From Rhizaria sp. SCN 62-66 (Eukaryota): DNA of 64,000 bases. The position numbers and the translations under genes are program-made. The stretch lies in assembly GCA_001724265.1 (NCBI GenBank), contig MEDY01000318.1, positions 1 to 64,000 of the forward strand. The letters are read 5' to 3'. Below, in pieces: positions 33,523 to 58,700 of this stretch; position 1 is the first letter of the stretch; each line of letters opens with the position of its first letter. Under the pieces are notes generated by a model. The model was given only the letters and a program-made list of their open reading frames with translations. It ran no database searches and was not told the DNA's origin.

Positions 33523-36500
33523 TTATAGTAGTTTGCGGACGAGGTTCTTGTGCATGCGACGTAGTGTCTCATTTTCCTCAAGCAACATATCACGCTGTGC
33601 AGTCAGTGCCATCACTGGCGACGACTCGTGCGAGCGTTCATAGACAGCGGAGGAGCTGCGTTGTGGACTGACATGACTGTGTGTGTGTGAAGTGTTCGTG
33701 TTACTGTTGTTGTTGCTGTTGTTGCTCTTGGCAACGGCGCCAACACCACCGCGAAAACTCATGTGGTTTTGGCTCATATGACTGTGGTGCGCAGAGTGTC
33801 CGGCTCTAAAGCCTGATTGATACACTGCCTGTGCATGCGCATGTGCTGCAGCTGTAGCAGCAGCGGCTGCTGAGTTGTCGTCGTAGTCACTGTCCGCGAT
33901 GCCACTGGTGTTGTGTGCATTCACAGCACGGGAGCTGCTGCTGCTGTTGTTGTTGTTGTTATTGTTGTTGTGCATTTGACGCGTCGGCGTTTGTGGCACA
34001 GCGTACGCGCTGTGGCTGATGTTGCTATTGTTTACATTATTCGCGTGAACAGGGGTCGCAGCAGTGCGCAAGATAGGACTGACAGGCTCATATGCATAGG
34101 AAAACACGTCATGCTTGAACACACTGTTTCCCGAAGGTTGTGACTGGTGTAACGGTTGCTGTTGCTGCTGATGCTGCTGGTGATAGAGTGCAGTCACTTC
34201 GCGCATCGCACGTTCACGCGCCGCAGAAGCAATCTGGCTCTCAGTCGCCGAGGCCTCACTTTGAAGTGAGGCGGCTTGACTTTGAGCCGCAGCCAGCTCA
34301 GCCTTAACAGCGTCCACCGCAATCTTCGCAGTGGCAGCTTCAGTCTTAGCGGCGCTCGCTTCAGCCTTTGCAGCATCAGCTTCACTGCGGGCCAATGCGA
34401 GTGACTGGCGCTCGACAGTTAGCGCAATCCGCTCCGCCGTGAGCGCGTCTTGCGAGGTCCGCAGTAACGCGGCAAGCGCGGCGGCCTCGGTCTTGCCTTG
34501 GTCGGCGCGGGCGGCATCGCTGGACTGTGCCGTGGCAAGCTGTGCAGTGAGGGAAAGACACTTGGACTCTGAGGCTAAGTTCTTTGACTCGAGATCCAGG
34601 CACTTAGACTGCAACTGAGCACACTTTGCCTCAGCTGCCGCATATTTGGATTCAAGCGCTGAAAGCTTGAACACAGCGTCGTTGTACTTCGACTCAAGAG
34701 TAGAGCACTTAGCGTCAAGGAAAGAGTACTTAGATTCAAGTGCGGAGTACTTAGAGCGTAAATGCGCTTCCGTCTCTGCTGCTGCTTCTGCAATCTCAGT
34801 CGCACGCCCCTCGGCACGAGCCACCGCTGCCGCTGCTGCCGCTGCCGCAACTCCACTACGACCCGCCGCAGTGCGAAACTCATCATTCTCACCCCGCACA
34901 ACATCTAGCGTCGCCTTGGTCGCTGCGAGAGTTGCCGCAGTTGCGTTCAAGTTCGCAGTCGCTGTCTCGAGTTGAGCCATCGTATCGTCAAGATGAGCCT
35001 TTGTTTCATCAAGCTGCGCAGTCGCGTCGTCAAGCTCTGCCTTGGTCGCTTCGAACACATCCCTTGATGCCCGCAGCGCACTGATAGCAGCGGCAGCCTC
35101 AGCATCAGCGCGCTGCGCCTGCGCGCGCACTGCCGCGCTCTCACTCCCCGCGGCCGCCAGCGCAGTCCGCAGCTGCTGCAGTTGCGCGACCGCAGCCGCC
35201 AGCCTCTCGCGGGCCTCCTCAGCATCCGCAGTCGCTGCAGCGGCTGTGTCAGTCGCAGCGCCGGTCGCACCACGCGCCGCCACAGCAGTTGCCGCCGCGG
35301 TCTCTGCCTCCGTCACAGCTGCAGCGGCGGCAACAAAAGCCTCGGCGGCCGCAGCTTCGCTCTGACGCAACGCGGTCTGACTTTCAGCAAACGCAGCCTT
35401 GCTTTGCGTCAACGCGGCTTGACTTTCAGCCAGCGCGGCTTGACTTTGCGTCGCCCACGCCTCCGCGTCGACAGCGCGTGCCTCAGCCTCCGTGACCCTG
35501 GCGTTCGCCGCGGCCGCCGCTGCAGTCGCCGCGGAGGCCGCAGCAGTCGCATCCGCAACGCGCGCTTCTGCGCCTTCACGCCGCGCCTCTGCAGCCGCAC
35601 ATTGCGCCGCGCATTGCGCCACGCACGTAGCCAACGCTTCCTCCGCGGCCACAGCGCGCGCAGCGAGGACGTCGCACTCGCCGTCGCGGGCAGCGGTCAG
35701 CGCAACAAGACTCTCGTTAGCAGCGGTACGCGCGCTGTGGCCACGCAAGGACTCTTCTGCAAGCGCGGCTTGACTTCGCGCCAGAGCGGCCTGACTTTGA
35801 GACAAGTCGGCCTGCGTGCGGGAAAGTGCGGCTTCGGTCTGCGCGCTCAAGGCCTGGATTTGCGCAAGCGCAGCTTGACTTTGAGACAACGCGGTCTCGC
35901 ACTGAAACAAACGCGTGCGCGTCTCACTTAACGCCGCCTCAGACTGGGCGCACGCGGCCTGACTTTGTGCCACCGCAGCTTTGCTTTCAGCGAGTTCAAC
36001 CTCCTTTGCTTGAGCATGCTTCACAGCGTTCTTGAGCTCGCTTTGTGACTCTTGCAGCAGCGATTGAGCTCGGCAGAGCTCGCTCTCACGCTCAACACAC
36101 GTAGCCTCACTCTGCTTCAGAGCATCTTCAGCCCGCGACAACGTATCGCACAACTTTGCACACTCAGTCTTCGCAGCGGCGGCCTCGCCATGCGCTGCTG
36201 CAATTGCAGAGTCCGCTGCAGCGGCTGCAACGCCACCGGCGCGCCTGACCTCAGCCAGTTCCGCGAGCGCTGCCCGTGTCGCCGCTGATGCCGCGGACGC
36301 CTCGATACGCCCTTCGCGCGCGCCCGCCGCAGCCGTGTCAGCAGCAGCCTCCGCGGTGTTGCGCGCTGTCACAGCTGCGGCAAGCGCAGTCTCAACCTCG
36401 ACAAGCGTGGTCTCAGCAGCGAGCTTAGCGGACTCTGCAGTAGCTTTGCCGTCGATAGCGGCGTCGCGTGAGATCGCTAGCGCACTGCACCGTGCCTCCG

Positions 36501-39500
36501 CTGCGGCGCGTTCGCTTTCTGCAGCACGGAGCGCACGGAGACTCTGAGCAGCCTCTTGTAACGCAGTCGTAAGCTGGGTCTGTGCAGTTGCAACAGCAGC
36601 CTCAAGCTCAGCCACACGCAACCGCAGTGTCAAAAGCATCGACTCTGCATTCGCCTGCTGCGCCAGCGCAGCAGTTGTTTGCGATTGAGCCTCCGTCTTC
36701 GCGACAACAGCGTCATTGGCAGCAATGAGCGCATCCTTGAGCTTTGTGTGGAGTGCTGAGATTTCGCTGCGCACCGCGTCAGCCTCCGCGCGGAGTGCAA
36801 TAACATCGGCGCAAAGTGACTCGACGTGACCGCTTGTCGCACTGCGCCCGCCCTCAGCAGCAGCAGCGTCAAGCCGGGCAGCTGTGGCCTCATTCCGCGC
36901 GAGCACAGCCTCAGCGCGCGCAGCGGCCTCGCTCTCACGCGCCGCTGCAGCTTCACTGTGCGCCGTGTTGGCGTCATTGCGCGCTGCAGCTGCGTCCTCC
37001 CGCGCAGCGGTGACGGCACCGCGGGCCTCCGCGGTTTCAGTGCGCGCTTGCGCCAGCGCTGCCGCCGCGGTCTCGGCATCAGCCCGCGCGGCAGTCACAG
37101 ACGCGGCAAGCGCGCTTTGCAGCTCTGTAACGGCGTCACCAGCGGCAGAGAGTTCAAGCGCGAGCGCGGACTGCTCAGAACCCCATTGCGCGCGTTCAGC
37201 ATCTAGCTGCGCCTCTAAGTGCGCACGGCGCTGATCTAAGTGGTCCGCTAAGTACTGGAGGTTTGCAAGATCGGACTGCAGTTGCGCGCATTGCTGCTGA
37301 AGCTGAGAACGCTCAGTTACCCAGGAGAGCTCACGATCACGATCACGGTCACTGCGCTCACGCTCACGGTCATCACGGAGCATAGCCAAAGCGAGCTCTG
37401 TCGCAGATGAGTCGTTCTTCACCGTGTCACCCAAGTTCGCTGTCGTCGGTAACGCCGACGCAGAGGTTGCAAGTAAGAGAGCGTGCGCAGACCGGAGTGC
37501 GGTTAGCTCCGCAGTTGTGTCAGCGAGCTGTGCTACAGAGGCGCTATGATTGCTTTGTAAATTTGCAAGCGCGGCAGCAAGCTCAGCCTCCTTCTGCGCA
37601 GTGTTCCCGTTGTTGGTGGCAATGATGCTCTTAGCATTGTTAACCGCCTTAATGGCATCAAGCTCCTCAACGAGACTTGCGCGTTCAGCCTTGATCTCGT
37701 CAAGCGCAGTCTCTAGGGCAGTCCGCTCTGCTTTTGCAGCAGTCTCAGCAACAGTCAGCGTACTATCGCGCTCTTGTTGTACCTTGTCACAGACACTGCG
37801 AAGCAGCTCACAGTTGCGTTGAACTTGTTCGAGATCGGCAACAGCCTGCACACACTCCGTCTTGGCAACATCACGCTCGACGACAGCAGTATCACGTTCT
37901 TTCACTGCAGCATCGCGCTCTGTAAGTGCGCTGTCACGCTCAGCAGCGATCGTGTCACGTTCAGCAATAGCGGCGTCGCGCTCAGTCACTGCAGCGTCGC
38001 GGGAAGAGAGTGCAACAGCACAGTCTACATGAACGCTTTCGTTCTCAGCCACAGCAGCGTCACGCGCTGCAGTCGTCTCGCCGAGCAATGTAAGTAGCTC
38101 TTGGCACTTGGAGGTCGCCTCGTCGCGCTCTTGCTCTGCACTTGCACGCAAAGTTTCGCTATTTGCAAGACTCTTCTCTGTATCCAGACACTTCTTCTCG
38201 AATTCACTACACATCGATTGCAGAACTTCGCACTTTGAGCGCATCTCATCACACGTGGCTGCTAACTCGTCGTGCTTTGACTGCTACAACTCACTTTGAC
38301 TTTGAAGAGTCTTGTTCTCAGCCTGACACTCGGTTGCCTGAGCGAGCAGTGCATCGCGTTCTGACTTCAAACATGCGTTTTCGGATTGCAGAAAGTTGTA
38401 CTGCGCCTGTAGACTTTCGCATTCCGAGGAAACACCAGAGGCTGCCTGCAGTGCCAATTGCAATTTCTGCATCAGCGATGCAGCCTCAGCCACAGCTGCT
38501 TCCTTTTCAGCAGTGAGAACCGCTAAAGCTGCTGCCGATCGAGTGTCCGCCTTAAGAGCAGCCTCAGCCGCAGCCGCATTAGCGGTCACAACAGCTTCAG
38601 CGACCGCAGCAGCAACTGCGTTAGTGACAGCAACACCGTGGGCTTCGTCAGCCTCAGCTGCAGCTGTAATCGCAGCCGCAGCGGCGTCAGTTGCAGCCTG
38701 CAGGCGCACAGACTCGCTCTCCTCAAGCGCGGCCTGACTTTGCTTCAGCGCGGCTTGAGTCTCGCGAAGTGCAGCCTGACATTTCTGCGACTCATGAGCT
38801 TTCTCATGCGCCGCGGCTTGACTTTGCTGCAGCGCGTTGTCCTTCGCAGCAGCAACCTCTTCCCACTCAGCCTACGCAGCGGCATGACTCTCGCGCAACG
38901 CGGCTTGACTTTCGCGCCACTCAGCGATAACTTCACTCCACTGTGCCTCACGCTGCGCAGCCGCCTCCGCCGCCTCAGCCGCTGCTTCAGCAGCTGCTTG
39001 CACGGCGGCCTCGGCTGCTGCCTGCGCAGCAGCCTCGGTCTGTACCAACGCGGCTTCGTTGTCGTACAACGCCTCTTTGGTCTCTGCCAGCGACGCCTGG
39101 CACTGCGTCAGCGCGGCTTGGCTTTGCTCCAAGGCAACGTGAATGTTTTCCTGCTCAACGTGAGACTGGTCCAACACGGCTTGACTTTCCGCAAACGCGG
39201 CGTGACTTTCCTCCAGTGCAAATTGGGTGTCATCTAGTTGCGCGCGCATGCGTGCGAGTTCTGCCTCCGCGCCCTGCTTGGCAACCTGACATTCATCGAA
39301 CGCGGCTTGACTTTCCGTGACGGCCTGTTTCATCTGCGCATGCGCGGCCCGCATCACCCCATGCGCCTCAGTCAATGCGACATTCGCCCTCTCCATCTGC
39401 TCACAGTCGTTTTCCGCTTGCGCCATCCGCCGTTCCGCACGCACAGCCCTCGCATTCGCACGCCACGTTGCCATGGTGATCGCCAGTCGCGCGCGAGCCC

Positions 39501-42500
39501 GCGCCGCCGCCACAGCAGCGCCAGCCGCGCAGCTCGCCGCGCCAGCCGCCGCGCCAGCCCGCGCCGCGCGGACGACTGCAGTCTGCGCGCGCCAGCGACC
39601 GAGCAACCGCGCCGCCGCGGCCCGCGCCCGCCCACGCGCGCACACGTCGGCAATGGCGTCGTCGCGCGCTCGCGTTTCAGCACCGCGCGCGTTGTGGCGC
39701 CACCGCCGCAGCGCGTTGGCCACTGCGGCACGCTCCGCCTTAAGCGTGGCATTCGTCGCGATAACCGCAATTGCAGCGGCAGCGCGCTCTTTGCGCAGTG
39801 CATCCGTTGCAGCGGCGACGACTTGCGCGCCAGCGACTTCGCGCGATAACGCTTGCCACCGCAGCAACGTGCGCTGCTGCCGGCGCGCAACAGAGCGGGC
39901 CAGCGTGGCCGCTAGCGCACGCGCTCCCGCGGCTTGGCGCTGCTGTGCAGCAACCTCGGAGGCTTCGGCGGTCTCAGCGCTAGCGCCAGCAAGTGCGGAG
40001 AGAGATCGCCACTGCAGCAACGCACGGTGCGCCTGCCGCGTCTCACAGCGCCGCACAACAATGCTAACTGCCCGGATCAACGCAGCTACACCAGTATCAC
40101 GCGCACGCTGCTGCTGTTGCGCGCTCCGCTCCCGCTCGCTTGCCACAGCCGCTACCGCCGCTTTGGCGCGAATATGCTCGCGCCAACGCGCTAGCCCAGT
40201 AAGCAGTTGTTTCGCGCGCGACTTGTCAAGGATCCGCGCAAGAGTCGCGGTGCGGGCCACAGCAAGCACGTCACGCCGGGTCCGTTGCGCGGCCGCAGCG
40301 GCGCGCCAGAGCCGGAACCCGGTCACCCGCAGCGCAGCTTCACGCGCGCGCGCCAACCCCGTCGCGTGCGCGTCACGCACCGCGGCCAGCGCGGCCGTGT
40401 CGCGCGCAGCCGCTTCAGCGCGCACGCGCTCGGTGACCGCGCTCGCTGCGTGCGCGCGCCAACGGCGCAGTGCGGTTGCGAGTGCGCGCGCGCGACGAGC
40501 GCGTTGTAGTAGAGCAGCGGCGGTGGCTATGGCGCGGACACTGTGAGTGAGTTGCCGCCAGTGGCCGAGCGCGGTGACAGCAGAACAGCGCGTGCGGCGA
40601 GCGGCGGCGGCAGAGAGCGCGCGCGTGAGCGCAGTAACTGCACTGCTGCGGGCCGCTGCGGCAGTGGAAGCTTTTGCTTGTGCTGTAGTGCGGGTCTGTG
40701 TCACTGCACGCCAGTGTGCAAGGCCGCGCGAAAGAGATTTGACCTTGCTTGTGAGGGTGATCGCGGAGACGACTGTGAGAAGGGCGCGTGCAGACACCAG
40801 AGTGACTGGTGCCGGGAGTGAGACTACTACGGTCGACGGCGGGTAAGGGGCAAGAGCCGGGGCGCTTAGAACGTGAGGCGCGATAACCGTGAGCACGCTC
40901 GTAGTCGCAGCTGCAGCGCCATCGCCGTCGCCGTCGTCGTCTTTGTCACTGAAGTCACTGTAAGTGGCACGCGTTAGCGTCTTGATGTTGTTCGCGGGCA
41001 GAGCTACGGTGCGACTGCGAATCCCAGCGTCATCGTTGCTGTCTTCGTCACTACTGGAGTGGTGGACACCACGTGCACGCATCGATTTACGACCACTGCG
41101 AAATACCGCTTTAGACTGCAATTGAGGGCGGGCATCAGAGTCTGAGTCCGTCGGCAGTGTAGTGGAGACAAGAGGGCGGTGCAAAAGCGCACGCGCACGC
41201 ATCAGTGCACTGACAGCGTCCCCATCTCCGTTGCTCACAGTCGCACTGTCACTGCTCAGGGTCATCACGCCCCGCAAGTCGTTCTTTGCTGTAGCTCCGC
41301 GGTTGCTGTCGGTGTCACTGTCCGAGCTAGGACCGTCAGAGTGAGAGTGGCCGTGCGCAGGGTGTGGCTGCACTGTTCCAGTTACGCTGTCAAAGCTGCC
41401 CCCGGAGACCAGGTTGGCGGTGGGCAATGTAGGCATCGCGACAGTGCTGGCGGCAGGGCTTGGGGCAGTACGACTGCCAAAGCTTGCAGCAGCAGCAGCA
41501 CTGGTGCGGCCCAACTGTGTAGCCTGCTGATTTGGGGCAGCACTGTGTGTCTCAAGCTCTTCAACATTATTCTCGTCGTCATAGTCATCTTGATTATGAC
41601 CTGCGCCGTAACTAACGTGATCATTCGCGTCCATAGTGTTCGTGCTAGAGTCTCTCTTCGTTGGCAGATAGTTGAAGCTCGCTGCAGATGGACCGTGGCC
41701 GTGACTGTAAGCACCAGGAGCTGCGGCGTTCACAGCATTTGCGCTGATGACAGCAGGTGGGACCGAAAGAGGCCGCGGGGCTGTGAACGCATGCGACGCC
41801 ATGGTGCTTAGACTATGCAAGGGCTTGTTCCCAGCGCCAGCACCAAGGTTGCGCTTCTGAACAGTCGCTGCAGCAACATGGACTGAGGTGGTAGCCGCAA
41901 TGTTCGCTTTCGCTGCAGCACCTTTAGCTGTGTAGCTAGGCGGTGTGAGGGGCGTAGGCGAGGAGAAGTAAAGCTCCCGCACTGTCGGAGTTGCGCCGCC
42001 CACAGTCACTTCCCCCTTAGATGTCGGCGGCAACGCAGCGCGACGCTTATCGTCCACATCAAAGCGGCCAGGGGTACTTACATACAGGGCACTTACATCC
42101 TGTGGAGTAGAGTTAGAAGCAACGTCATATCCGTGGTCGTGGCAGTGGGCGGCGACTGTAGCAGCAACGGCACGGGCAGCGGCGGCGGTCTCTGCCGCTG
42201 CAGCTGCGACTTGGGCAGCAGCGGTCGCCTCGCCAGCGGCGGCGGCCTAACTTTCCTTTGCTGAGTCGGCAAGGTGATGGATAGCGTGCATTGCCTTCGC
42301 GAGCGCAGCGCTAGCAGCACGCGCGGTGCGATTGTCCCGCTGGTGACTATGAGCACTGCTGGTCGCGGTGGCGGTCGCGGTGGAGGTCATGTCACTCTCA
42401 CTATCGTTTGTCGCGTCAGTATGGGAGTCGTCAACGCTCTGTGTGTCCGCAGCGTTATTGCCGTTCCCACCACCGCGAGTGCGATTCGTAGCGTTGCTAT

Positions 42501-43407
42501 TGTTGCCGCCACGGCGACGACGCTCACGGCCAGCCCGCAGCGCGTGTACCTGTGAGCGAACCTGTGACTGCAAGTGTGACTGCAAACCAGAGGTACTCAT
42601 GAGTCGCGGTCGCGGCACTGTGGGGAGAGCGGGCGGCGGTGGCGGGAGCGGCGCGTAGATTGCAGCCGCTTCCGCCTCAAAGTCCTGCCGTGACGGTCCA
42701 AACTGCTGATGTTGCTGCTGTTGCGGGGGGAGTGGTAGTCCCGTTATCACACCTGTATTGTGGCCGTGAGCGTGACTTTGGCCGTTGCCGCGAGCGTGTA
42801 AAGATATGTCGCCAGTACTCACAGTAACGGCGCCAGGCGCAACAGTAAGCGTGATCCCGTCACCACGAGCACTGCTCGTTGGAGAAACAGATACTGCATG
42901 AGGAACAGTGGTTGAGGGCGCGGCAGGACCATACGTCACGCCGACAGCGCTATCACTCGCGCTGTCATCGCTCTGCAACGCCCCACGCTGCGCATCAGCG
43001 CTCCCGGCAGCCACAGCGGACGCGGAACGCGCAGCGGCAGACAACTGCGGACGCTTCGAGTGCACGCGCACGCGCACACGCGCTGCGTGCGCTGCGCCTG
43101 ATGCCAGTCCGAGGCGCGCGGCGTCAAGCACCGCAAGAGCGCCAGCGGCGGCGCGGGACGTGTCCGACTGTGCCGTCGAGGCCGTGGGAAGTGACGCAGC
43201 AATGCCGGGTGCAAGCGGGTTGAAGGGCACACTGGAGGCACAGGCAGTGATGGTGGCGGGCGGCGGACGCGCAGAGAGCAGTTGTGGTGGCGGGGGATCA
43301 AGGCCGAAGGGCGCGGGAGCCAGAATAGGGCTGGGGGTGAGGCCCGGGGCTGGGGTGGTCATTGCACGGGTGCTATACCTCGCGAAAAGCGCGTGCTGCG
43401 GGTGCAT
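33523..43407 (-). CDS. Giant (~3294 aa) protein with Sfi1-like LxxWR repeats and a long coiled coil, read through three in-frame TAG codons
   Basis: ORFs 42247-43407, 38872-42057, 38284-38709 and 33523-38244 share one frame. They are separated only by TAG at 42247-42249, 38872-38874 and 38284-38286, and the linking codons are open and of the same composition. Stop TAA at 33523. Confidence 0.8.
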
Positions 43408-45083
43408 TTAAGACCGAGTGCTGAACACACGGGGCAGGACGTGCGCGGAGGCAAATATTTGGACGTCTGAAAGAAGCTGGGAAAGGGGGATTTTGACCGA
43501 GAGACGGCCGAAGTTAGACGTTTGTTTCTGGTCAATTCAATAATAAAATTAAATGTAAATTAAAGAGGAAACTTTACTTTTCAAATTAATCGCTCATTGA
43601 CGATGGGTGTGTCTCATTCGACGAAATAAATGTTTGTCGCGCGTTCAATGCGCCTCATCAATCGCCACAACAACGCAGCGGCAGGTTCAGTATGCTAAAA
43701 TGTTTTTTGACTGCTTGTCCACACGATATGATTTGGCTCTGCATTGCTGGACTTTGATATATTGTTTGTCAGGTGTGTATCCACCTTGAAGCACTGAAAT
43801 GTTACTTAAAAGACTGATTGTACTGACGGAATATATGCAGTAGAATTCTAACATCTCACCCTCAGTCACATATTTGTGTTGCGCAGGAGCCGGACATGCT
43901 CCTCGAAGGTCTCTCTCGTCATCATAGCGCTGCTGTTCAACTCAAAAATACACTAGGCGGCGCATCCATGTATTTCGCCTTGTTTTGCGGAGCGTATGCG
44001 TGGTGCAACATATTCTACCTTGTTCATATCAGTTGTGTCTCTTCCCTTCTTCGAGTGTTTTCTGCATCGTCGTGTTCATCACCTGTGCTAAGACTGTTAT
44101 ATGCAACGAGCGAGTTGTGTTGGCATCAGCGCATGCGACTGCGGCCCCGGCGGCGAGTGCAAGAAGAGCAATCCGCTTCCTCGTTTTCCTCCTGGTCATT
44201 GTCGTCACGCGCGCTCTTCTTGCATATAATTGAGTTTGGCCGAGGATTAGCTCAATACATATGGATATGTATTTGTAAGACAGAAACAACATATAATATA
44301 CATCTGAGTTGCATCTTCCGTACACTGACTCTTTAAGTCATCGCTAGTGGCCACAATATGGAAATGTTTGCAGGATATGGGAGCAACGCCGATATATCGC
44401 ATCGACGTTGTCACAACACTATTTTTAAACAAAAACAACAGTAATATAAACTACGGCCACTGACACAAGTAACACATAAAGTGTGATACAGTGATGTTGA
44501 CGCGGAATGAGCATAAAATAACAAACTTACAGCACTGATCTGTAGCATTAATATCATCCGTGCAACTTGGCACGACACAGATAAGGAAACAAATATTCTT
44601 GGGACAGAAAAAACAACAACTAACAGCAACATAAACATGCTATCATATAGCAACACATTTAGCATGCGCAACGAAAGAAAACAATCAAATGACTCAATTA
44701 AGAATCGAAAGCAGACGAGCACACGTGCGTGTGCGCGCCTGTCGCTACTGCAAAGGGTCAGTCGACCAAGTGCGTCAACAACTATGTTGTACACACATTG
44801 CGATAATCGCAATGAAGCAATGATGTGTTGATTCGTAACCAATACTCACAGCTCACACTCGAGCGTTTCAATAAAATCTAATGAAAGGATAAGTTTGCTT
44901 GAAGTGGCAATAAAAAAAAAAAACTAACCTACTTTAAACTTTAACATGAAAAAAAAAAAAACTTATGGGGGAAAATACATTGTGACAATGTGTGTTTACA
45001 ACCAGCTATTGTTCAACCCACACTTGCCCAAACAAGGGACTCATACAAAAATTAGAATAATAGGTTGGATTCGATACATAGAC

Positions 45084-48000
45084 TTAAACATCGTAGCCGG
45101 TCCCGGTGGCAGTCATCTCAAGGTCGGCACTCTTGGCTTCCGTGCCTTCCTTAAAGCTAGAGTTCGAGAAGCACCAAAGCTTCTTGTAATACAAAAAGAT
45201 CACGATGCCAGCAATGATGAGGAAGCCGCCGACGCCAACGACAACGCCTGCAATTATGTCAGCGTCATTACTGCCACCAGTGCTGCTGTCCGTCTCCTCA
45301 CCAGAACTCGCCTCAACAGCACCAGTGCCAGTACTCGCGGGCAAGCCCTCGCAGGACGAGCCGCACGCGTCATCGGTGATGCCGACGTTGGTCGCGACAG
45401 CCGTACTCATCGTCGTGGTCGTGATCGCCTGGCCAGCACTCAACGCGTCCGTAATCGCCTTGAGGGCCGCGTACGTGTCAGCCATCTCGGCGGAAACTGC
45501 CTGCGCAGTGAAACGCGCGGCGGACGGAGGACGCAGGCGCGCGAGGTGCGAAGCAAAAGCGACGGGCAGCGCACCAGCCTGTTGGCTATCGTCGTTGCAG
45601 TCGGGGCCGGCGTTGATGAGAACATTGACAAAGTTCCCACTCTTGGTGGAGACGCTGCGCACGCTGGCGATGGAGTAAACAACAGTGGTTTTGCCACCGA
45701 GCGTCCTGGCATCTGCCTTGAGCGCGGCCGACCACAGGGCAAGCTGTGCGGCCTCAGTAGACGTGCCGAGGAAAGGCAGCGCAGACCTGGGGAACACGAG
45801 GTGCAGGTTAGCAAAACGGCAACCGCAGTTGTCGTCCTTGTAACCAGGCTTGCACTTGCACTTGCACTGGGACGAGATAGAGCCAGAAGTTCCCATCATC
45901 GAGCACGAGTTCTTGCACGTGTTGCAAGTATCACCGCCAAAGGGCGAACTCGTGGGGCAGGTGCACTTCTCAGCACACTTGACAGTACTAGTTGTCTCGT
46001 CATACACTGAGAGCGGAAGGCCGCCGTTGTAGCAAGTCAGAGTCGCGCAAGCACCGGTGTCAACAGCCTCGTTACACAGCGCGCCCTTGAAGAGCGCAGT
46101 CGTGCCGTCGGTACCGGTGCGGCAGTTGCACTTAGCCTGGTCGTCCTCGACCGTGCAGCTTGCGGTGTTGACGCTGTTGCACGCGGCGCCCGCGCACGGT
46201 GAGACGGAGCAGTCAGAACCGGACCACGCACCCTTGCACATACACTGGCCCGAAGTATTGTCGCACGTGCCGCCGTTGGCGCACGAGTGCGACAGACCTT
46301 CCGCGGGGTCACAAAGCGAGTAAACCGTGACGGAGGCCGACAATGTCACGGATGTCGAGTAGAACACAGCCACGGTGTACGTGCCGGGAGAGAGACTGTG
46401 CGTGGCGGCGCTGATTGAAGTGGAGAGAGCGCCGATGGCGATCTCTTCAATGAGAGAAGGAATCGAGTATCCAGGCAGTGTGAGGAGCACGGAAACCTTA
46501 GCGCCAGCGACGGCGGCCGCGTTAGTGGCCCAAGCAACGTCAATGGCGCGAGTGGTCTTGTTCCATGCGACAGTGAGCTCTGAAAGCTTGATGGAGCTGC
46601 TACACATTGCGCCAAAGTAACCGGCATTGCAAACGCACGTGGCGAGCACGTTGTCGTACGTCGTGTCGCCCACCTTGAACGACTGGTTGCCAGTACATGT
46701 ACCACCGTTAGTGGCGCAAGTCGCCTCAGGCGTGTCGCAAGTAACGTAGGCAGGAGGCTTGCTTGCTGTGTCACAGAGGTACGCCGCCGCAGCCACCTTG
46801 CTTCCAGACGCGTTCACGAAGGCGCAGTCCGAGGTCTGCGTGCGGATCGACTTGCACAGCGGCGCAGTCGAGGTGGCGCACGTGGCCGACTGCGTGATCC
46901 TCCAGCTTGCGGGCTTGGTGCAGTCAGTTGGGACATTGGCGCACGCTTGGGTGAGTGATAGCGAAGCATCCGTGCACAGAGCACTGTCAACAGTGGCGCT
47001 CGACGCGGTATCGTAACATACACCAGTGCGTGTGGCGGCACCGCACGTGACAACCTGGTTGTTGATGTAGCACTGGTCCTCAGTGTTGAACTTCATAGCG
47101 CACGTCTCGGTGTTTGATCCACACGCCTTCTTCAGCACAGGCGGGTTCTAAGAGACTAAAGAAGGGCAGAGGGCCCCGATGTCAGTGGTGCTCGTCGAGT
47201 CGGCAACGCACACAGCAATGCGCTCCACCGATGGGTTGGTGTGGCAACCGGAGGAGCTGGCGCAGGCGCTATACCCACCGTTGTTGACACAATCAACCGC
47301 GGTGTTTGTGGTGCCGGCTGCGTAGCACTTCCACATAGCATTCGGGCACGAATTGTCGGTGCAAGACAGCGTAAGCGTCGGCTTGGCAGTGGCGCACTTG
47401 GCAGTATCAGCGGTGGCCTTGTACGCGTTGTTGTTAAGACGCGAGCAGTAAGGTGCATTCAGGGGGCGAGTGCCTGTGCCGCAGTTGTTGCTGCAGGTAG
47501 TGCTGAACTGCGTGGCGTCTGAAGTCGAGCACACAAGGCCTTCGGCAGCAGCGCCGTTGGAAATGCCCGTGCAGCGCCAGTCGTAAATGCAGGCGAGGCC
47601 GGGGGTCTCGAGCGAGGAAAAGCCCGCAGCAAGATCCATTGTGATGGTGCCAACCTTGGCAGGCACAAGTGTGGCAGAGCGGTCGCAGTCGTCTGTCACA
47701 GCAAGCGTCAGCGAGAACTGCAGCGAGCCCTCGGCAGTGGGCAGCTTGTCACTCAGCGGGATCGTGATCACGCCACTCGCAATATGGCCGGTGATCGTAA
47801 TCGCGGTAAAGCTATGAGAACTCGCGGTGACACTGATGGGCAGCTCGGAGTTGTCGCTGTAAAGGGCAGCAATAGAGCTGGTAAGCGTAATCTTGCCTTC
47901 AGCCGCGCCTTGCTGGAAGGTGAAGTAAGAAAGCGCAAGAGTGAGGGCCGAAGTGGTGACAGAACTCTTGGTAACCTTAACGCCAGTCACTACAGTGCAC

Positions 48001-51000
48001 ACAGCCATGTTGAAATCGGCAGTGAACGCGCCATGCGAGGTCGCAGTCACCAGTGCAGCATTGGTGGAGAGCGCGAACGAGCTCACGGTCTCGCAAGCCA
48101 CGGCCGAGTCAAGCGTGGGTCGTACAACGAAGGAGCCTTCGGTAGGGAGCTCGGCGTTGCCCGAAAAGGTAAAAGACACGGTTATGGCACCAGTGGCATT
48201 ATTATACGCGAGGCCCGCAGTGACGCCGTCAACAATAGCGTAGTGTTCGTTCAATACTTGCACTTTGGTGATGGACAAGCCAGTGAAAGGGTTTGCGTGG
48301 CTCGTGTTGGCGCGCTCAATGGTGAAGACATTAGTGAGGGCCACCTTGTCCTTGTTAGAGTAGGTAAGCCAGGAGACGACAAAGCCGGAGTTGCCAGTGA
48401 GCTTCATTTCGTCGCTCTCAATCGCAAGCCCAGTGAAGACGGCAGGGCACTGCTTGGAAGTGTACGACGCCGACATCGAGCCCGCTGAAGCAGCGTGCAA
48501 AATCACCGACGAGTCGGAACCCGAAGAGAGAAGGAAGTGGGATGTGACACCGCAGGTTGCACCGGTGCTGAGCTTGAGAGACAGCGTAAGAAGGCCATTG
48601 ACGGGCATTGGGCTATCCGTCGTGGGGGCAAATGAAACGATGTAAGCACCGTCGTCGACAATGACGGTGGCAATGCCAGCAACAGAAGCGCCAGCGCTAG
48701 TGAGTGTGACAGTGGCGGGAGCTTCGAGATTGAAGGCGTCACTGCTGCCGTCCGAGGATGCAAAGGAGAAGCTCGACTTGAGCGATACACTCATCTTGTT
48801 AATAAACCCGGTCCATGTGAAGATGGCGTTGTAGTTATCGCCGTCAATCTCGCTCGTGACGCTGACGCCGCGAAACTCAGCAGGATCGGGGCATACTTCA
48901 GTGGACGCAGAGACGGTCAGATCAGAGCCGGAGAACCCGGAAACGTTGCTCTCATCGACACCAAGAGTGTACTCGCTCGCGAGGCCGCACTTCTGAGATT
49001 GAACGGCGTCGAACGAGAAGAAGCCCGGAGCGGGGATAGTGTTGGTTCCAGTGCCGCTGAACGCAAAGTGGAAGCCAGCGTTGCTAAACGTGACCGCGAC
49101 ATCAACGTTCGCACCGACATTAATGGGGGCTGTAGATCCAGAAAGCGCATTGAAAACTGCGGCAGTGCTGCCACTGAACAAGATCGAATAGTCGGAGAAG
49201 TCCTCCATGGGAATATTGTCAGTATTCTCAAAATCGGTCCAGGAAACGGTAAACGTACTCTCGACAAGCGTAAGTGACATACCGCTAACACTGGGACACG
49301 CCGCGGCGCGCGCCTCAGTGGCCACCAGAGTCGTATCAATCGAGTTGCTCACAGTGGCGATTGCAGTATTGGCCGAAGAAATGATATAAGAGCCCGTAAA
49401 GGTCTGACTGCACGAGTGAGCGGTTTCGTTGATCTTGGGGACGAAGACAAAATCAGCATCAGCAGGCATCGTGGCGCCGTTAACAATACTAAAGGTGATC
49501 GTAATCACACCGGCGATACTCTTGGCAGTGGCGCGAACGTCGCTGTTCAGCACCACAGTTTCGGGCCCCCACTCGCTGTCGTACACCTGGGTACCAGACT
49601 CGAGATTGATCTGCAGAGTCGGAGAGGCGGTGTTAAACGTGCTCACGGTGACGCCAGTCCAGCTCACGGCAAGCTTTGCCTTGCCTGCGTCCACAAACGC
49701 ACTGAGAGCCATGGTGTCAAACGAGATCGGGCAGTTGGCCCAGACGTACGTGGAGACAAGCGCGTCGTTGTCGCCGTCAATGGGCGCAAACGACGACGAG
49801 TCCATCTCGGCGACGAGGAACACTTCAGACGCGTCGCAGCTATGTGACTGCTGAGAGCGCGGGGGCTCGACGTCGACGTAAGCCGCAGTAGGGAACACAG
49901 CAGTTGCGTCAGCGCCGATGTAGACAAACGACAGCGTGATGGTAGAGTCAGCGACAACGGCAGTCACGGCCCAGTCGGCGTTGACCGTGCCCGTGGGGTT
50001 GTACAGCGCGGCGAGCGCAGAGGCCGCGTCATCAATGAGCGAGGAACTCATTGTGGCCACGTCAGCATAGGAGATCTTGACCATATTCTCAAATATGGTT
50101 GCGTCCGACTTAAAGCCGGTCCACGAGAAGCGGAAGCCGACGGAACCTTCGATTGCAGCCAGCGTGTTGTTGACGTCGTCATCGTAGGGCGCGGTGAGGC
50201 GCACGCCGGAAAACGCACTGATGCAGCGGGGTGTGCTGGCAATGAAGTTGACAGCGCCAGACACGACCGGATTGCTGTTATCGACGATGTACATGCCAAG
50301 GCCGGTGGTGTCCTCGGGGCTTAGCTTCTGTGCGGCATTGACAATGTCGCACTTTGCAACGAGCACTGTGTCAAATGAAACAGAGCCCGACGTCGGGAAG
50401 GAATCCTGGGTGCCCGTCTGACTAAACGTAATGTAAAGACCATTGTTGTCATGCGTCAGGTATGCGGCGAACGTGAGCTTGTTTTCTTCAATCAGCACAT
50501 AAGTTTCGGGGAACTTGGCAGCCTCGAAAACGACGACCCCCGTAGTTGTGGCAGGGGCAATCCTAAGACTCACCATGGTCTCCTTCAGGGTCAACGAGTC
50601 ATCGTTACGGTATCCCTGCCACTCAAGCCTGACGCCTGTGCTCGTCTGCGTGACCGTGACACCCGTCATTGTGGGGCAGGCAGGCGTGCGCACGTCAACC
50701 GACAGCAGGGCCATGTTAGTGTTGATGATCGTCGCAAAGTCAGTGTTACTCGACTCAAGCGTGATGCTTCCAGTGGAAACCGACGCGCACGTAATCAGAG
50801 AGTCGATGAATTCAAGGTTAAAAACCATGGTACCCGATAAAGGAAGCGCCGTGCCAGGGGCAGTTGAAAAGGATAGTGTCATAGGGCCGCCGTCGGTAAC
50901 GATTTTAGCAGTGGCAGGGTAGCTGGCGTTCGCATTAACAGTCAGATGGAGCGCTTGAGCCTTGAAGAGGCCATTGTTCATCGTCAAGACCAGCTCCGGC

Positions 51001-52973
51001 GACAGCGGGCTTTCGCTGGCCATCGTAAGTGACTCCCAACTCACAGTAACTGACGCCGCGCCATTGCTGTCAAGCTCAAACTCCACCTCGGCATTCTTAA
51101 AAGTGATAGGGCACCATGACCACACGAATTCCACTGAGAGTGACTCGGCAGACTTCTTCAACAAGAGATTGCTTGAGTCCGCGCTGGAAACATTGTGCAT
51201 GGCAAACGTGTTGCAGGGCATCTCCTGGGCATCAATACCCGTGATGCGCGTGGGGAAAATGTCAAAATAGCCAGACGCGGGAAAAGTGGCGCCCATTGAC
51301 TTGGTGACGCTTACAACAAAATTGCCGGAGTTAGAGTCAAAGCTTGCGGCTGCGGTGATCCCGGCGGCAGGAGTTTTGTCACTTGCGAAGATTGTCACGA
51401 TGTTGTCAACACCCGTAAAAAAACCGGGGTTATCCTCACCGGGAGAAATGACCATGACGTCGTCCCCGTTGAAACCAATGTTATCCTTGAAATTGAGCCA
51501 TTGTACGCGCAGAGACGCAGTGCCGGCAGCCGGATTAACGGTATCAGCGTTGACACTGAGCGAAACGGATGAAAATGTGTTGTACTGGCACATCTCCGCC
51601 TCGTAGACCGCGGAGGCACCGGCATTGTTGTTGGCGTCGGTCACAGAAAGGAACAAAGGATCGGCAGCCTCAAGGCGGTAGTTCGAAGTGGAATCGCAAG
51701 CCATTTCCTCCGCATAGCTGGCAAATGAGAAGCTACCGGATGTGGGAAAGGCGCCCACCTGAAGTTGTGTGAACGTGAGAATATACTCGCCATCGTCGTA
51801 CTCAAGCTTGACCACAGTATTTTGGTCGCCGTCAACTGTCTGATTTGGCGGATTATTCAGGATACCATACAGGGCCGCGTACTCACTCTCAGACGCAGTC
51901 TTAATCTTGAGCGGCGAAAGCCGCGTTACGGGCACGTTACTAGGATTGCTAAAGCCAGTCCACGCGACTGCAATAGAGAGGCCTTCGCCCATCTTAGCGC
52001 TGAAGCTCACGCCAGTGATTTGGGGGCACTCTGCGAGAGTGACAGTGACAGTGGGCTCGCTTGAGACGGCGGTAACATCTGAGTCGGACTCCAGCTTATA
52101 GTCACCAACAGTGCTCTTGGAGCACATGCCAATCGCTTTCACGGGAACGATGAAGGAGCCCGCTGTGGTGGTGGAGAGCGACTTGTCTTCAGGAATGTCG
52201 AACTCAATCATGATATTGTCATCGGAGATCTCCGCCCAAACGGTGACTCCATCGGAGCCGGTAACATCGGTAGACTCGCCCGTATCAGAATCAAAAATCT
52301 TGGCGCCGCCAGTGTTCTTGAGGATCAGCATCGGATTAAAGACCTTGTGTGTGTGCACTGACATTGACACGCCGGACCACCCGACGGTGACCTGAGGCAC
52401 GCCCTGCACCAACGCGGATGTCAACGTCACGTCAGCAAAGCTCACCGGGCACAGCTTACCGTGGAACGTAACAGACGAGGAATACAGAACGTCACCTTCA
52501 CCGCCCGAAACCGTGTACTGTGCGACGGTGTCGCAGGGCACGTCCTTGTTGAGCGTCATAACGAGGGTCACATAATTGGAGTCGCTCGGAAAAACCTCGC
52601 TACATTGGAAGGAAAGCGTGATTCCGCGGTCGCTACTGTCGAATTGCGCCGTAAATGTGCAGTCTTCGGAGGAGAAAGTGGCAGAGGTGATCCCGGTGAT
52701 CAAGAGAGGATCGTTGTGCGCGTCCCCAGTGTAGTCAAGGAAGAGTGAGTATTCAAAGTCGGAGCTACTGGTAGGGTCTGAGGTGGCGTCCCAACCGAGA
52801 ATGAATTTAGAAGAACCGGAAATGCTTCCGTCGTAATCGTCGGCGAAAGAGAATTCCTCGTATGTCAGACCTGCAGTGGCCGATACGAGACTTGAGAGCG
52901 AAAGAAGGACGCTTAACAGCACCACAAGGAGACCCAACGAGCACGCCCGCTGAGGACCCCGCCGTGAAGTCAT
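45084..52973 (-). CDS. Large (~2629 aa) type-I membrane surface protein: ~12 beta-rich repeats, Cys-rich TSP1-like and EGF-like modules, TM helix; one in-frame TAG
   Basis: ORFs 47148-52973 and 45084-47138 are in frame and joined by TAG AAC CCG CCT (CPSLVS*NPPVLKKAC). Signal peptide, EGF-like CANGGTCDNTSGQCMCKGAWSGSDC, TM IIAGVVVGVGGFLIIAGIVIFLYY and a short tail ending GYDV. Stop TAA. Confidence 0.85.
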
Positions 52974-54356
52974 CTATTATGTGGAGTAAGAAGGCAGTAG
53001 GAAAGAAAAGTGGCATAGGAAAAACGGAATAGCGTTTGTGGCATGTGTTAGCAAAGTGATGAAGTGCGGTTGAGAACAAAACTAAAGGCGCCCGAGCAAG
53101 TGAGGTGTGGGGCTGATGTTAGGAAGGTCATCTCTGAAGAGTCTCGACCAGAATTTGTGTTTTTGACGCCTTTTATATTATGCTGGAAAAAATATCGTTT
53201 TTGATTAATATTTTTACGCCCTTGATCTACACAAAGAAAAACAGATAAAAATCATTGGATCTCGGCAAACTAGCAACAATACCTCAAGAAGAAATCGGAC
53301 TCTTCGAAAACCCCTCGCCGACCGCTGGCCAGCCAGAGCTGCTTGACCAGCAATTGGGCCGCCTGTTCGCCTAAGTCGCCAGGCAGGTCAGCTTGGTTGA
53401 CTTGGTGTCCAATATAGTGTAGTGTATATTCATATAAAACAGTGACTTTGAAATATATTATTTAAACAGTTTGGATACACTTGAAAATATGTTGCTTGGA
53501 GCTACAACTCCTCATTCTCTGGAAATATCTGTCTTAATATGATGAACATCAAGGATATGGGTCGTAAGCCTAGGTAAATGCAAGCGTAATCAGAAGAAGA
53601 TGGCGGCTAATAGGACTGAGAGTGTGGCTTTAAGTTGTATTACAGTCTGTTCCTACCTGTGTGATACGTTTGACTCGGATCAATTGTAATCATTTGCGCG
53701 TTTTCACCGCAAAGAGCGCAACATCGACAGTACGAAACTCTCTTAACGGTGGATAACGGAGTGCAAATTGTTTAAATGTCAGCAACTGTATAGTATGTCA
53801 TTAATAATGCGTGTTGTCTCTTTTAAAATTGCGTTTATTTGCAAAGCGCTGTAGATCACACCTGCAATACGTGTGATCTTGCAATTCGAGACCACAAAAA
53901 ACGTTTGTGGCTGGCAGGGTTGCGGCAGCAGCTCCTGTCAGTGAAAAATCTGCGTTGCACGGTCAACAGAAACGTTGGGGCTACCTCAACCAGTTAACAC
54001 GCTCGCTGTTTTTGTGCGTATGCCTGACGCATATTATGACTTGTACGCTTAGATCTCTTTTAGTATTCGGCCACGCTCTTGTTCTGCGCCGGTATCATGT
54101 CATTCTCACAGAGACGGGAGAGGATTGGATATAACACGAGCCTCTTCACAAAGCCACATCTAGCGAGCACACACAGCCTTCAAGAAGTCCACCCTCTTAT
54201 ATTTTACCCTGTTTCATATTGCTCCCAACTCATATTTGCTTAACTTCCTTCCTTGAAGTGTGAAAACCCTTCAGACCGGTTCGAACTGCATACTGCACGT
54301 GACTCGCCCCCTCCTCTCTTCGGTTCTTTCCTGTGCGCCCCCGTCGCTCCCGCTCA

Positions 54357-55733
54357 ATGTCCTTTACCGCAGCGGGAGCCTCCCCGCACTCTGGCTCCGA
54401 TCGACTACCGCGCCAAGCCTTGGGGCCTTCGGTGCCGCCTCCAACAGCTTCCAGAACTGCGGTGAACGTCGAGCCCTCCACAACCACGTCATCCCGCGGC
54501 AACACCACCGCCGCCAAGAAAGACATCGGGCGCCACAGTGAGCATCACGACGATGACGATGACGACGACGACGACGACCATGATCACGACGACGACAATG
54601 ACCACGATGCAGCCCACGGCGGTGGCTTCAAGCGTCGCTCCAGCATGCTTTCCAACTGCTACACCATCACCACTGCTGCCTTTCTCACCACCCTCGTCGC
54701 CTTCGCGGTCCTCATCCTCGCCACCCTCGCGCCCTCGTCGGCAGACGACGCGCTCTCCGGCGCCGCCGCTACGTCCGCCTTGCCCGATATGGCCACCGCC
54801 TCTCTGACAGACGTTCTCTCCGCCTTCGCCGCACGCTTCGCCTCCACAGCCTCGGCCTCGCTGCCGGCGCCCGCCGCGCACGACCTTGCCGCGCTGGCGC
54901 TGCTGACTCACCTCGCCGTCGTCCCGCTGACGCACCTCATTGTCGGCCGCCGCCGCTACCGCTCTGCCTGGTCGTTCTGGCAACCGTTCGCCGGCGGTGC
55001 GCGTTTCGTGCTGCTGCAGGCGCTCGCGTGGACCGCCTACGGGCTGGTGTTCGCCGCCGTGCTGTTGGGGCTGTACCGCGGCGTCCAGACCGTGACCGTG
55101 GCCGCACTGCGCTCGCTGGGACTGGGCGGGGTGATTGCGCAGACGCTCGTGCTCGTGTCGATCCACTACTGGTACAATAAGGGCGAGCGGCACTTGTCGG
55201 ACTTCACGCAGAGGCAAACGGCCGCCGCGGTCAAGACGCGCGCCGTCGCCAGCAACGACCTCGTTAAGGGCAATCTCGCAAAGAGCAAGACCACTGCCAG
55301 CAGCAAGAGCACCGACTCCAGTCGGAGTGAGAGTGCCGCTCTCGGCAGCGGCGACCGCGCTCACGACAGCAAGCTCTCTGTCGGCGTCGCCGCTGCCGCT
55401 GTCCCTGAAGACGAGGGCGAGTCCGAGGGCCCGGTGACTGGTCGGGCACGTGGGGATAGCAAGGCCAAACGGCTACGTCGCCGCGCGCGCCGCGCCGCTG
55501 CTGTGGCCGCCGCCGCCGCACAGGCCGCCGACGCCGCCGCCGCCGCCGCGGCCACGCTCGCCGCTGTGGCCGAGGCTGGGACCGACGTCGCAGTTAGCAA
55601 CGACGCTGCCGAGTCTGGCGGTCAGACAGGCAAGAGCAGCAGCTTTGGCTCGCAAAGCATCATCACAAACGCCACTGACGCTCCCCACGCTGTGACTGCC
55701 GGTGCAGCCAGTGCTGCGAAAGCTGCTATTCCG

Positions 55734-55765
<32 letters not shown>

Positions 55766-58700
55766 GACGACACCGGCTGCGACGACACCGGCTGCGATGT
55801 GTGCGCGCCACAGCCTCGTCCGCTCACAGTCGCTCGTGCGCTCGCAGTCGCTCGCGCTCGGGCTCGCGCCGGCACAGCTGCGGTCAACAGGCTCCGGCGC
55901 TCGGATTGCTGCCGTGCAGCAAGGCGACGCCTCCGCCGCCGCCGCCGCAGCTGGTGAAGGCGGCGTTGCCCCGCCGACTGTGGCCGTGACCGTGGCCGGC
56001 GCCACCGCACGTGTCAGCGCCCGCCTCTCCCAGTCAGTCCACGCCGCAGCTGAGGCGGTACACGACGTCACCGAACGTATTCGCCGCGTAGTCGCGCACG
56101 CCAGCGCTGAAGGCGCTCTCGCGCGCTCACGGTCGCGCTCGCGCTCGCGCAACGATGCGGCACGGAGTGCGTCGCGCAGTGCGTCACGCACTTCGGAAGG
56201 TGCGTCACGCAGATCTGCCGCAGCTGGTGGTGGCGGCGTCGATAGCAAAGCACGCAAGGCCGCTTCTGCGGAGGACGATAAGGACGGGTTTACTACTGCA
56301 GCGAGACTAGTTGCTGCCGACGGCGACAGCGGCATCAACGAATACGACGCCGATGCAGACGCTGACGCCAATGATGATGATGAAACTGACGCTCAAGTCA
56401 AGGGAGACAAGTACTGTGACAACGCAGGTTGCCTGAGTCCCGACACCTCCAACGTCACACCCACCGGCCCTGATTCCGTGTCTGACGCTGCGCCTGCGAC
56501 TGGGACTGTGAGCCCTGTTGTCGCGACTGTTGGTGGTGTCCGCTCAGGCCGCAGCGCCCGTGGCAGCGACCCCAGCCGCGGCCACAGCCGCGGCCGCAGC
56601 CACGATCCCAGCCACAACGATGTCAACACACGACACACCACTCAGCACGGCGACACACACGCTCACGCGGGCAGTGCTGGGACTGGCGCTTATGTGACTG
56701 CGAGCAGCAAGCGTCGTCCGCCGTCCCCGCTTTACTCCCTCCGCTCAGCCCTCGAGCGCTCTGCCTCTGCGACCGCGTCGGCGTCGGCGTCCTCGTTCAC
56801 GTTCGCCACGATCGCACCAGCGTCTGCCGCTCTCGCCGCTGACGGCTTTGCTGCCACTAGCGGGGCCGAGCCGTGTAGCTCGTGCCCTGACTGTGTGGCC
56901 GAAGACAAGGCTCGTCTCGCGTCCAAGGCTGCCGCTGCGGCCGCCGCGGCCACCGCCGAAGCTGTAGCCGCCGCCGCTGCTAGCTCCCCTAGCTCCGGCA
57001 GCTCAGGCTCAGGCTGCGCGACGCCAACCTCTGCGAGCGCTGCAGCCAGTGCTGCGGATGCCCCGCTGCTGGGCTGGCGCGGCGTTGGCTGGGTCGGCAC
57101 CGCGCTCACCGTGCTATCCCTCGCCATTTCATCCGTGCTCGAGTCCATCCTGCTCTCCCCTGCGTCCGCCAGCCTCACCGTCACCGCGACTGCCGGCGCG
57201 GCCACCACCGCGCGCACTGCGGCGCCGCTCACGGTCGTTCTCGCGCTCATCGCGCTGGGCTCGGTGCTCGTGGCAGTACCGCTGACCCACGCGCTCGCCG
57301 GACACCGCCTCCACAATATCAACGGCGGCCGCGGCGGTCACCGTGTTATTCTCCCGGCCGCGCTCCCCGCCGCCGTCGCGGCCGCCGGCACGGACGCAGA
57401 CGCAGACGCGGCCGCTGCCGCTGCCGCCGCCGCCGCTGCCGTCGGCGGCGGATGGCGTGTGTTCCAGCCGTTCCGCGGTGGCCGCCGCTTCGTCCTCCTG
57501 CAGGCGCTGGGCTGGATGCTCTGGTCGTGCACGCTCGTCGCCGCAGTCTACCTGCTCTGCTTCGCTGACTTACCATCACTGCGCGCGATGGGTGCCGGTG
57601 TGGTGACCGTGCCCGGGCTGCTGGCCGTGATGTCGCAGGTCGCCGTCCTCGCGTCGCTGCGGCACTTCGACAAGTCGGTTGGCAACGTGCTGTGCCAGAC
57701 TGGACACCCCGGACACAGCAGCAACAGACACTATTACCGGAACGCCGGTGGCAGCGGTGCCTCCACGAGTGCGGCTGACTCTTGTGCTGCTGCTGCGACG
57801 ACTAAGATCGGGTTTTTGCTTCCGGCAGCGTCTAAGCTCCCGCATCTTCCTAAGCTGGGCAAGCTGCCACCGTTGCCAAAGGACAAGGATGTTTCGAGCC
57901 GGCTCGTGTCGTCGGTCGAGGTGTACTTGCGCCCGACGCGCTTCCAGCAGCACTTAGATCTGTTGTCGCCGTCGCCGTCGCCGCTGCCGTCGCCGTCACC
58001 GGGTGTTTCGCCTTCGCCGTCGTCGATGCAGAGCGAAAGCAAAGAGGCCACTCTGGCATCGCCTGAGAAGATCCGTGCTCACGGTCACTCCGCCCATGGT
58101 CACCACCATCATCATCACAGGTCCGTGGGCGACGATGAGGAGTCCGGTCATGACGACGGCTTCGACTCGGACTCCGGCTCCGGTTCAGACTCTGACAGCG
58201 ACAGTGACGATAACAAGACGGAGGCTTCTTCGCCGACTGCTGCGACGACTGCTGATGGCGGTGATGACACCGCGATCATCGGTGTGAGCCCGAGCCCCAC
58301 CCCATCCGTCTCCGAGCTTGCCCGATACCTGGTCGCGAGTGTCCGTACCTTTGACTGGCGTGTCATGCGTGAGCAACTCCAAGACATTGTTCTGCTCATG
58401 CTTATGTACCACACACCCGTTTTTGGTGCGTTCTTCACGTTCGCGCCCATCGCTGCTGGCTACATCTACGGCACGGCCTCTTGGCCCTTTATCGCCGTCA
58501 TCGTGATCCAGCTGTACTACTTCTCGGGCCACTTTTCCAACGCGCACCGCGACGGCTCGCGTGCGCGCGACTGGGCCCGCCAGCACAACGCCGTCTGGCA
58601 GGCATTTTATCGGTACTTCAACGCCACGCTTGTGCTGCCTAGTCGCGAAGAGCTCCAGGCCGCGTGGGATCTGCGCTATTTCGAGCCCGCTCACACGCTC

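Follow-up and report, generated by a model that had tools for sequence, protein, structure and literature searches.

The stretch analysed here, called the window throughout, is 64 kb of nuclear eukaryotic DNA (positions 1 to 64,000 of contig MEDY01000318.1); all counts below are within it unless stated. It carries two very long minus-strand genes that are interrupted in frame by TAG codons, and the question is whether UAG is a sense codon in the organism concerned. Under the standard genetic code the first of these, gene 1, appears as four contiguous stop-to-stop open reading frames (ORFs) in the same frame (42247-43407, 38872-42246, 38284-38871 and 33523-38283), and the second, gene 2, as a further pair of same-frame ORFs (47148-52973 and 45084-47147). 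When TAG is translated as X, the ORFs merge into frames of 3294 codons (gene 1, 33523..43407) and 2629 codons (gene 2, 45084..52973), each ending in TAA. Gene 1 contains three in-frame TAGs: TAG 1 at codon 387 (42247..42249, in the context AAG GAA AGT TAG GCC GCC), TAG 2 at codon 1512 (38872..38874, GCC GCT GCG TAG GCT GAG) and TAG 3 at codon 1708 (38284..38286, AGT GAG TTG TAG CAG TCA). The single TAG of gene 2 (47148..47150) is codon 1942 counted from the ATG, or X1943 in P0002. In-frame stops (TAA/TAG/TGA) thus number 0/3/0 in gene 1 and 0/1/0 in gene 2, over 5,923 codons together, and the off-frame counts are 39/42/202 and 46/22/145 (85/64/347 together). The codon just before the ATG of gene 2 (52974-52976) is TAG too, but as it is itself preceded by TAA or TGA, taking TAG as sense adds only one codon to that frame. 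A preliminary description of the window had claimed that four in-frame TAGs interrupt two long minus-strand ORFs, that every interruption is a TAG and that annotation with the standard code would fragment genes. All of this holds: both frames are recovered, neither contains TAA or TGA, and standard-code gene calling already splits both genes in public protein collections, which hold a 1941-aa piece of gene 2 and a piece of gene 1 ending at TAG 2.

The four TAGs are genuine DNA. Run X3 belongs to a different study from the run that may be the source of the window, and its contigs show no differences over any of them (record 3 for TAG 1, record 2 for TAG 2 and record 6 for gene 2). The TAG at 38284-86 also persists in a strain that was sampled years afterwards and differs from the window by ~0.7-1% (run X4, record 10, whose 12 differences all lie elsewhere), and TAG 2 is spanned unchanged and unspliced by a 224-nt contig of run X8 (record 26), a library labelled RNA-Seq cDNA but rated as probably DNA. 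The assembly may hold indel errors, as an apparent 1-nt frame change in C-runs of the Sec24 gene near 30100-30145 suggests, but an assembly or sequencing artefact at the TAGs is hardly credible in view of the identical contigs from an independent study. The same judgement applies to adjacent genes that share a frame by chance. Coding sequence in the window has a G+C content (GC) of 0.55-0.68 and spacers one of 0.33-0.43; within 100 nt on either side GC is 0.68 at TAG 1, 0.62 at TAG 2, 0.49 at TAG 3 and 0.56 at the gene 2 TAG, so that no AT-rich spacer of the gene-separating kind lies at any TAG, and homologues bridge the site in gene 2.

By inspection, the gene 2 product would comprise an N-terminal signal peptide, repeated beta-rich modules, a Cys-rich region of TSP1/EGF-like type and a C-terminal membrane anchor. 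All four homologues found in metagenome protein sets (P0007-P0010, 48-57% identity) read through the TAG column, and P0010 (2602 aa) matches gene 2 over its full length. The column is flanked by the invariant residues C1937/P1938 on one side and P1946/K1950/C1952 on the other. No part of the family is better conserved than the 687 codons downstream of the TAG, which include the membrane anchor: of the columns invariant in the homologues, the window protein retains 221 of 263 there and 181 of 207 upstream, together with every invariant Cys (45/45 downstream, 23/23 upstream). These comparisons show that gene 2 is a single gene that continues through its TAG. Searches with the family alignment returned only 14 distant EGF-like loci (23-35% identity) among JGI metagenome contigs, and no matches in GTDB genome contigs or IMG/VR. 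Two of the homologues, P0007 and P0009, lack a signal peptide and begin partway through conserved modules, despite lying on contigs of 20.7 and 69.5 kb; an in-frame stop or an intron upstream of their starts may be present in these relatives.

Gene 1 encodes an Ala-rich (26% Ala) coiled-coil protein without a Pfam family. Between residues 896 and 1316 (window 39460-40720) it has ten [LFM]xxW[RQ] motifs spaced 33-58 residues apart, which we take to resemble Sfi1-type centrin-binding repeats. A HMMER scan with gene 1 gave 19 hits, led by the window's own fragment; the others are weak coiled-coil matches, none spanning the TAGs. Contigs of polyA-RNA (run X6) lie on the gene. At 37919-37920 (codon 1830) the X4 strain has two adjacent changes that turn GAG (Glu) into TTG (Leu); the one-step intermediates would be TAG or GTG, and the change may be a single tandem mutation.

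Coding character around stop codons was scored with a codon-usage model trained without genes 1 and 2, requiring 60 stop-free codons on each side and a score above +10 bits in both flanks. There are 110 qualifying stops in the window (12 TAA, 26 TAG and 72 TGA), and the three that pass are the TAGs at 47150, 42249 and 38874. Their upstream and downstream flanks score +22.8/+24.3 bits at TAG 1, +12.8/+10.7 at TAG 2 and +14.4/+16.4 at the gene 2 TAG; TAG 3 (38286) is weak at +1.3/+2.3. None of the 12 TAA or 72 TGA codons has coding-like flanks on both sides. Across gene 2 the score is 0.39 bits per codon downstream of the TAG, a part that did not enter the training, compared with 0.48 upstream.

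Both before and after the TAGs the reading frames have been kept intact. Comparison was made with the X4 strain and the X6 contigs, and the counts that follow refer to the differences listed (40 of the 163 in X4). Genes 1 and 2 together have only two indels, both of 3 nt, compared with five in the 1.7-kb spacer between them (3, 5, 2, 1 and 2 nt), four of which are not multiples of 3; no frameshift is present in the 5,923 codons. The variants in gene 2 are 15 synonymous and 7 nonsynonymous, so its constraint is not relaxed. Before the TAG there are 8 synonymous changes and 1 nonsynonymous change; downstream the numbers are 7 and 6, and at least 7 synonymous changes in 13 would have a probability of 0.037 under neutrality (0.27 synonymous).

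These data bear directly on an ordinary explanation, which we regard as unlikely but serious: the code is standard, and the TAGs are premature stops that the organism tolerates (null or truncating alleles, or young pseudogenes) in two large, dispensable, fast-evolving genes of a clonal treatment-plant population. A recent stop in gene 2 would show no downstream decay yet, and a second allele would be invisible in contigs. Against this, four nonsense changes without a frameshift in frames of this length would be unusual. Pseudogenes would be expected to carry frameshifts and mixed stops, and neither is seen. Nor would such alleles account for indels of 3 nt only in genes whose spacer tolerates other lengths, for the surplus of synonymous changes that follows the gene 2 TAG, or for the TAG at 38284-86 being common to strains about 1% apart. 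Moreover, if the window is typical, four per 64 kb would imply thousands of null alleles genome-wide.

Removal of the TAGs at the RNA level, by very short in-frame introns or by A-to-I editing of UAG to UGG, as occurs in filamentous ascomycetes, appears very unlikely. Editing at UAG triplets would account for all four interruptions being TAG, and candidate introns can be drawn. TAG 3 (38286) has a donor-like GTGAGT 8 nt upstream, which allows in-frame GT..AG candidates of 33 or 36 nt with TTAG or GCAG acceptors; this qualifies the earlier statement that no splice signals surround the TAGs, while its companion, that no AT-rich intron-like sequence is present there, stands. Verified spliceosomal introns of the window are quite different, being 160-185 nt long and AT-rich (GC 0.36-0.37) with GTACG donors. 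Another GT..AG candidate, 66 nt long, has its end exactly at the TAG of gene 2; it was rejected, as it would remove eight residues that do not vary among the five family members (C1923, V1924, A1925, S1927, S1929, D1932, C1937 and P1938). The unspliced, unchanged X8 contig over TAG 2 would also speak against removal, but its run is probably DNA; neither introns nor editing explain the absence of TAG from gene ends described below. Joints between read contigs, among those listed, were considered as introns and rejected, being 20-24-nt low-complexity matches instead.

It is also improbable that UAG remains a stop in principle and is frequently read through, by weak recognition by the release factor eRF1 or by a natural suppressor tRNA, to give short and long isoforms. 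The rarity of in-frame TAG and its avoidance at gene ends would suit a poorly terminating codon, and since the gene 2 TAG lies upstream of the membrane anchor, readthrough there could yield, for example, secreted and anchored forms. TAG 3 is followed by CAG TCA, which fits CAR-YYA, the readthrough context of plant viruses. However, it is the only one of the four to do so; the base after TAG is G, G, C and A in turn, and no context or other signal is common to the four sites. Three leaky stops in series would, in addition, leave little full-length gene 1 product, yet the frame of that gene is kept.

Eighteen gene ends were traced, some 12 of them with good support from Pfam, homologues or the coding score and the other 6 only probable: 9 are TAA, 9 are TGA and none is TAG. 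This is not predicted if the TAGs are nonsense alleles. Were TAG 20% of stops, the probability of finding none would be 0.023 for 17 ends and 0.069 for 12. G-ending codons exceed their A-ending partners 2.4- to 5.7-fold in the window, yet TAA supplies half of the stops. One apparent exception, the minus-strand ORF 26953-27447, which has a coding score and ends in TAG, was discarded as a gene end: its TAG falls within a Sec24 intron, and the true end of that gene is the TGA at 26709-11, where the last residues align with the C-terminal end of a homologue. The preliminary description had counted 16 ends (7 TAA, 9 TGA and no TAG); the absence of TAG is borne out, but the total is 18 and TAA accounts for 9.

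A code in which UAG is sense while UAA and UGA are stops would be of a known kind, and the relevant reports agree with the earlier statement that codes separating UAG from UAA include those of a rhizarian, of Iotanema spirale and of some phyllopharyngean ciliates (PMC5304391, PMC11687900). In Rhizaria sp. exLh (Sainouroidea) UAG encodes Leu and the stops are UAA and UGA (Panek et al. 2017, PMC5304391); that account gives 384 in-frame UAGs in 71 mostly conserved genes, the amino acid being inferred from alignments, and gene ends of 56 UAA, 15 UGA and no UAG. The same report describes the fornicate Iotanema spirale, where UAG encodes Gln and is frequent, UAA is the main stop and eRF1 has a T32G change; UAG as the first downstream stop was judged more likely to be sense in all of the 81 cases checked. 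For phyllopharyngean ciliates, a 2024 study (PMC11687900) gives internal UAG in 78-91% of genes and UAA as 92-98% of stops in the TARA metagenome-assembled genomes and H. sinica; this reassignment was discovered in metagenome-assembled genomes, and it is expected to work through suppressor tRNA genes. Different amino acids for UAA and UAG have also been reported in a ciliate (PMC10553269).

The window resembles exLh in belonging to a non-ciliate eukaryote with UAG alone in frame and with gene ends of UAA and UGA, and it resembles Iotanema in that UAG would be decoupled from a UAA that is kept as a frequent terminator. With the phyllopharyngeans it would share a metagenome origin, a reassignment confined to UAG and suppressor tRNA genes as the expected mechanism, but it differs from them in its coding GC, in introns of 160-185 nt and in the use of TGA for half of its stops; in our judgement it is not ciliate-like. 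The features expected of a UAG-sense code that are found in the window are a homologue-backed in-frame UAG (gene 2), the absence of UAG as a terminator and the absence of in-frame UAA and UGA. Our literature searches found no report of such a code tied to wastewater eukaryotes, and a taxonomic placement of the window organism is lacking.

A number of observations weigh against reading UAG as sense. TAG use amounts to 4 in ~12,900 confident codons of the window and is confined to the two largest and least constrained genes, which is also where dispensable alleles would be expected. The other confident coding ORFs have no TAG in 6,939 codons; at the density of genes 1 and 2 there should be ~4.7 (P ~0.009). 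TAF6, SART1, Sec24, DGAT2, ZIP, kynureninase and the histidine phosphatase are all free of TAG, and the TAGs that adjoin conserved ORFs sit in sequence resembling untranslated regions or introns. In the published UAG reassignments (exLh, Iotanema and the phyllopharyngeans) UAG occurs commonly across most genes, and conserved genes are no exception; the genes in which exLh has it are mostly conserved, whereas the window has 4 UAGs in 2 of ~18 genes and none in a conserved one, and the frequent UAG of Iotanema is rare here. In the window UAG is not widespread in conserved genes at columns with a single residue, although a 64-kb sample is small for this comparison.

The TAG column of gene 2 is variable, with S, S, T and K in the four homologues, so that no amino acid can be read from it. 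A word-index search with residues 1380-1830 of gene 1 among proteins of 1811-5765 aa found no homologues, and without homologues no amino acid is readable at three of the four sites and the continuity of gene 1 across its TAGs is argued from frame and composition only. Side-chain constraint in gene 1 is weak: the variants listed against X4 and X6 are 5 synonymous and 13 nonsynonymous, as for neutral change, and 5 or fewer synonymous in 18 would have a probability of 0.006 if 60% were synonymous. No tRNA genes of any kind are found in the window by ARAGORN or Rfam, and the Rfam scan returned no family; the gene for eRF1 likewise does not lie in this stretch. The polyA-RNA contigs of X6 flank the TAGs, and among the contigs listed there is none that bridges one; the contig that covers 42295 has 43 nt to its end, and its orientation is ambiguous. 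Finally, the specificity of the coding score is limited. With flanks of 30 and 40 codons no TAA (0/89 and 0/45) and no TGA (0/261 and 0/165) is coding-like, but antisense frames of the Ala-rich gene 1 and a site upstream of SART1 also pass, and for this reason only the 60-codon version is relied on.

Mutational supply belongs on the same side. Codons one step away from each stop number 130 per 1000 for TAG, 56 for TAA and 41 for TGA. These sums make TAG the likeliest nonsense product here (~57%), and under random nonsense mutation four TAGs out of four would have a probability of ~0.11. The window shares with ordinary premature-stop alleles both this bias and the location of the interruptions in long, weakly constrained, lineage-specific genes. 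It departs from them in having no frameshifts, 3-nt-only indels, a TAG common to diverged strains, a synonymous excess beyond the gene 2 TAG and no TAG terminators, and it is on account of these features that a sense meaning of UAG is preferred to nonsense alleles.

We therefore lean, by a little, towards the view that UAG is a sense codon of rare use and that translation stops at UAA and UGA. The preliminary description had proposed that UAG is reassigned to sense, used rarely and missing from the conserved housekeeping genes. The last two points are upheld by the 6,939 codons of the other ORFs; the first agrees with the tests made within the window, but confidence in it is limited by a case of four codons in two fast-evolving genes, and 64 kb alone are not proof of reassignment. 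On this reading UAG would not terminate translation, and the ribosome would insert an amino acid, presumably through a tRNA with a CUA anticodon or through strong near-cognate reading, alongside an eRF1 that recognizes UAG poorly. The rarity of UAG could reflect a reassignment that is young or inefficient. Whether the window records such an early or inefficient stage, with UAG gone from gene ends and back in coding sequence at only a few weakly constrained sites, is close to an even question in our estimate, and we propose it tentatively. Pyrrolysine- or selenocysteine-like reading was dropped, there being no evidence for either.

If UAG is sense here, its very low usage sets the window organism apart from the known cases, and there would be further independent evidence that recognition of UAG and UAA by eRF1 can be separated. 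A nearly unused UAG would give a view of the transitional state assumed by theories of reassignment, and if the stage is early, it would be a natural codon-capture intermediate that separates UAG from UAA, in a lineage with no close relatives sequenced. If the TAGs are null alleles, the finding is ordinary.

The source of the window is an uncultured, GC-rich, intron-bearing eukaryote. Near-verbatim copies of the stretch occur in bioreactor and wastewater metagenome runs from several studies and years, from which its uncultured status follows. Besides genes 1 and 2, recognisable genes encode TAF6, SART-1, a histidine acid phosphatase, Sec24, a leguminous-type lectin, cornichon, a ZIP transporter, an FtsJ methyltransferase, kynureninase and DGAT2.

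The closest relative of the Sec24 protein is a metagenome protein with 71% identity, and the best from a named organism has 38%. The 71% relative (P0013) is a continuous 742 aa, while the window gene (26712-29497, minus strand) has three introns over the corresponding region; the source of P0013 may be a transcript or a relative poor in introns. The N-terminus of the window gene (30040-30220) is an Ala/Pro/Phe-rich repeat in one frame from an ATG at 30663. The 1-base switch to the main frame falls within this repeat, with no GT..AG around it, and could be an assembly indel or a real frameshift. On the plus strand at 54357-59588, a DGAT2-type acyltransferase domain is confined to the last ~230 of 1743 residues, preceded by a long low-complexity N-terminal extension with hydrophobic stretches, the whole forming one uninterrupted ORF.

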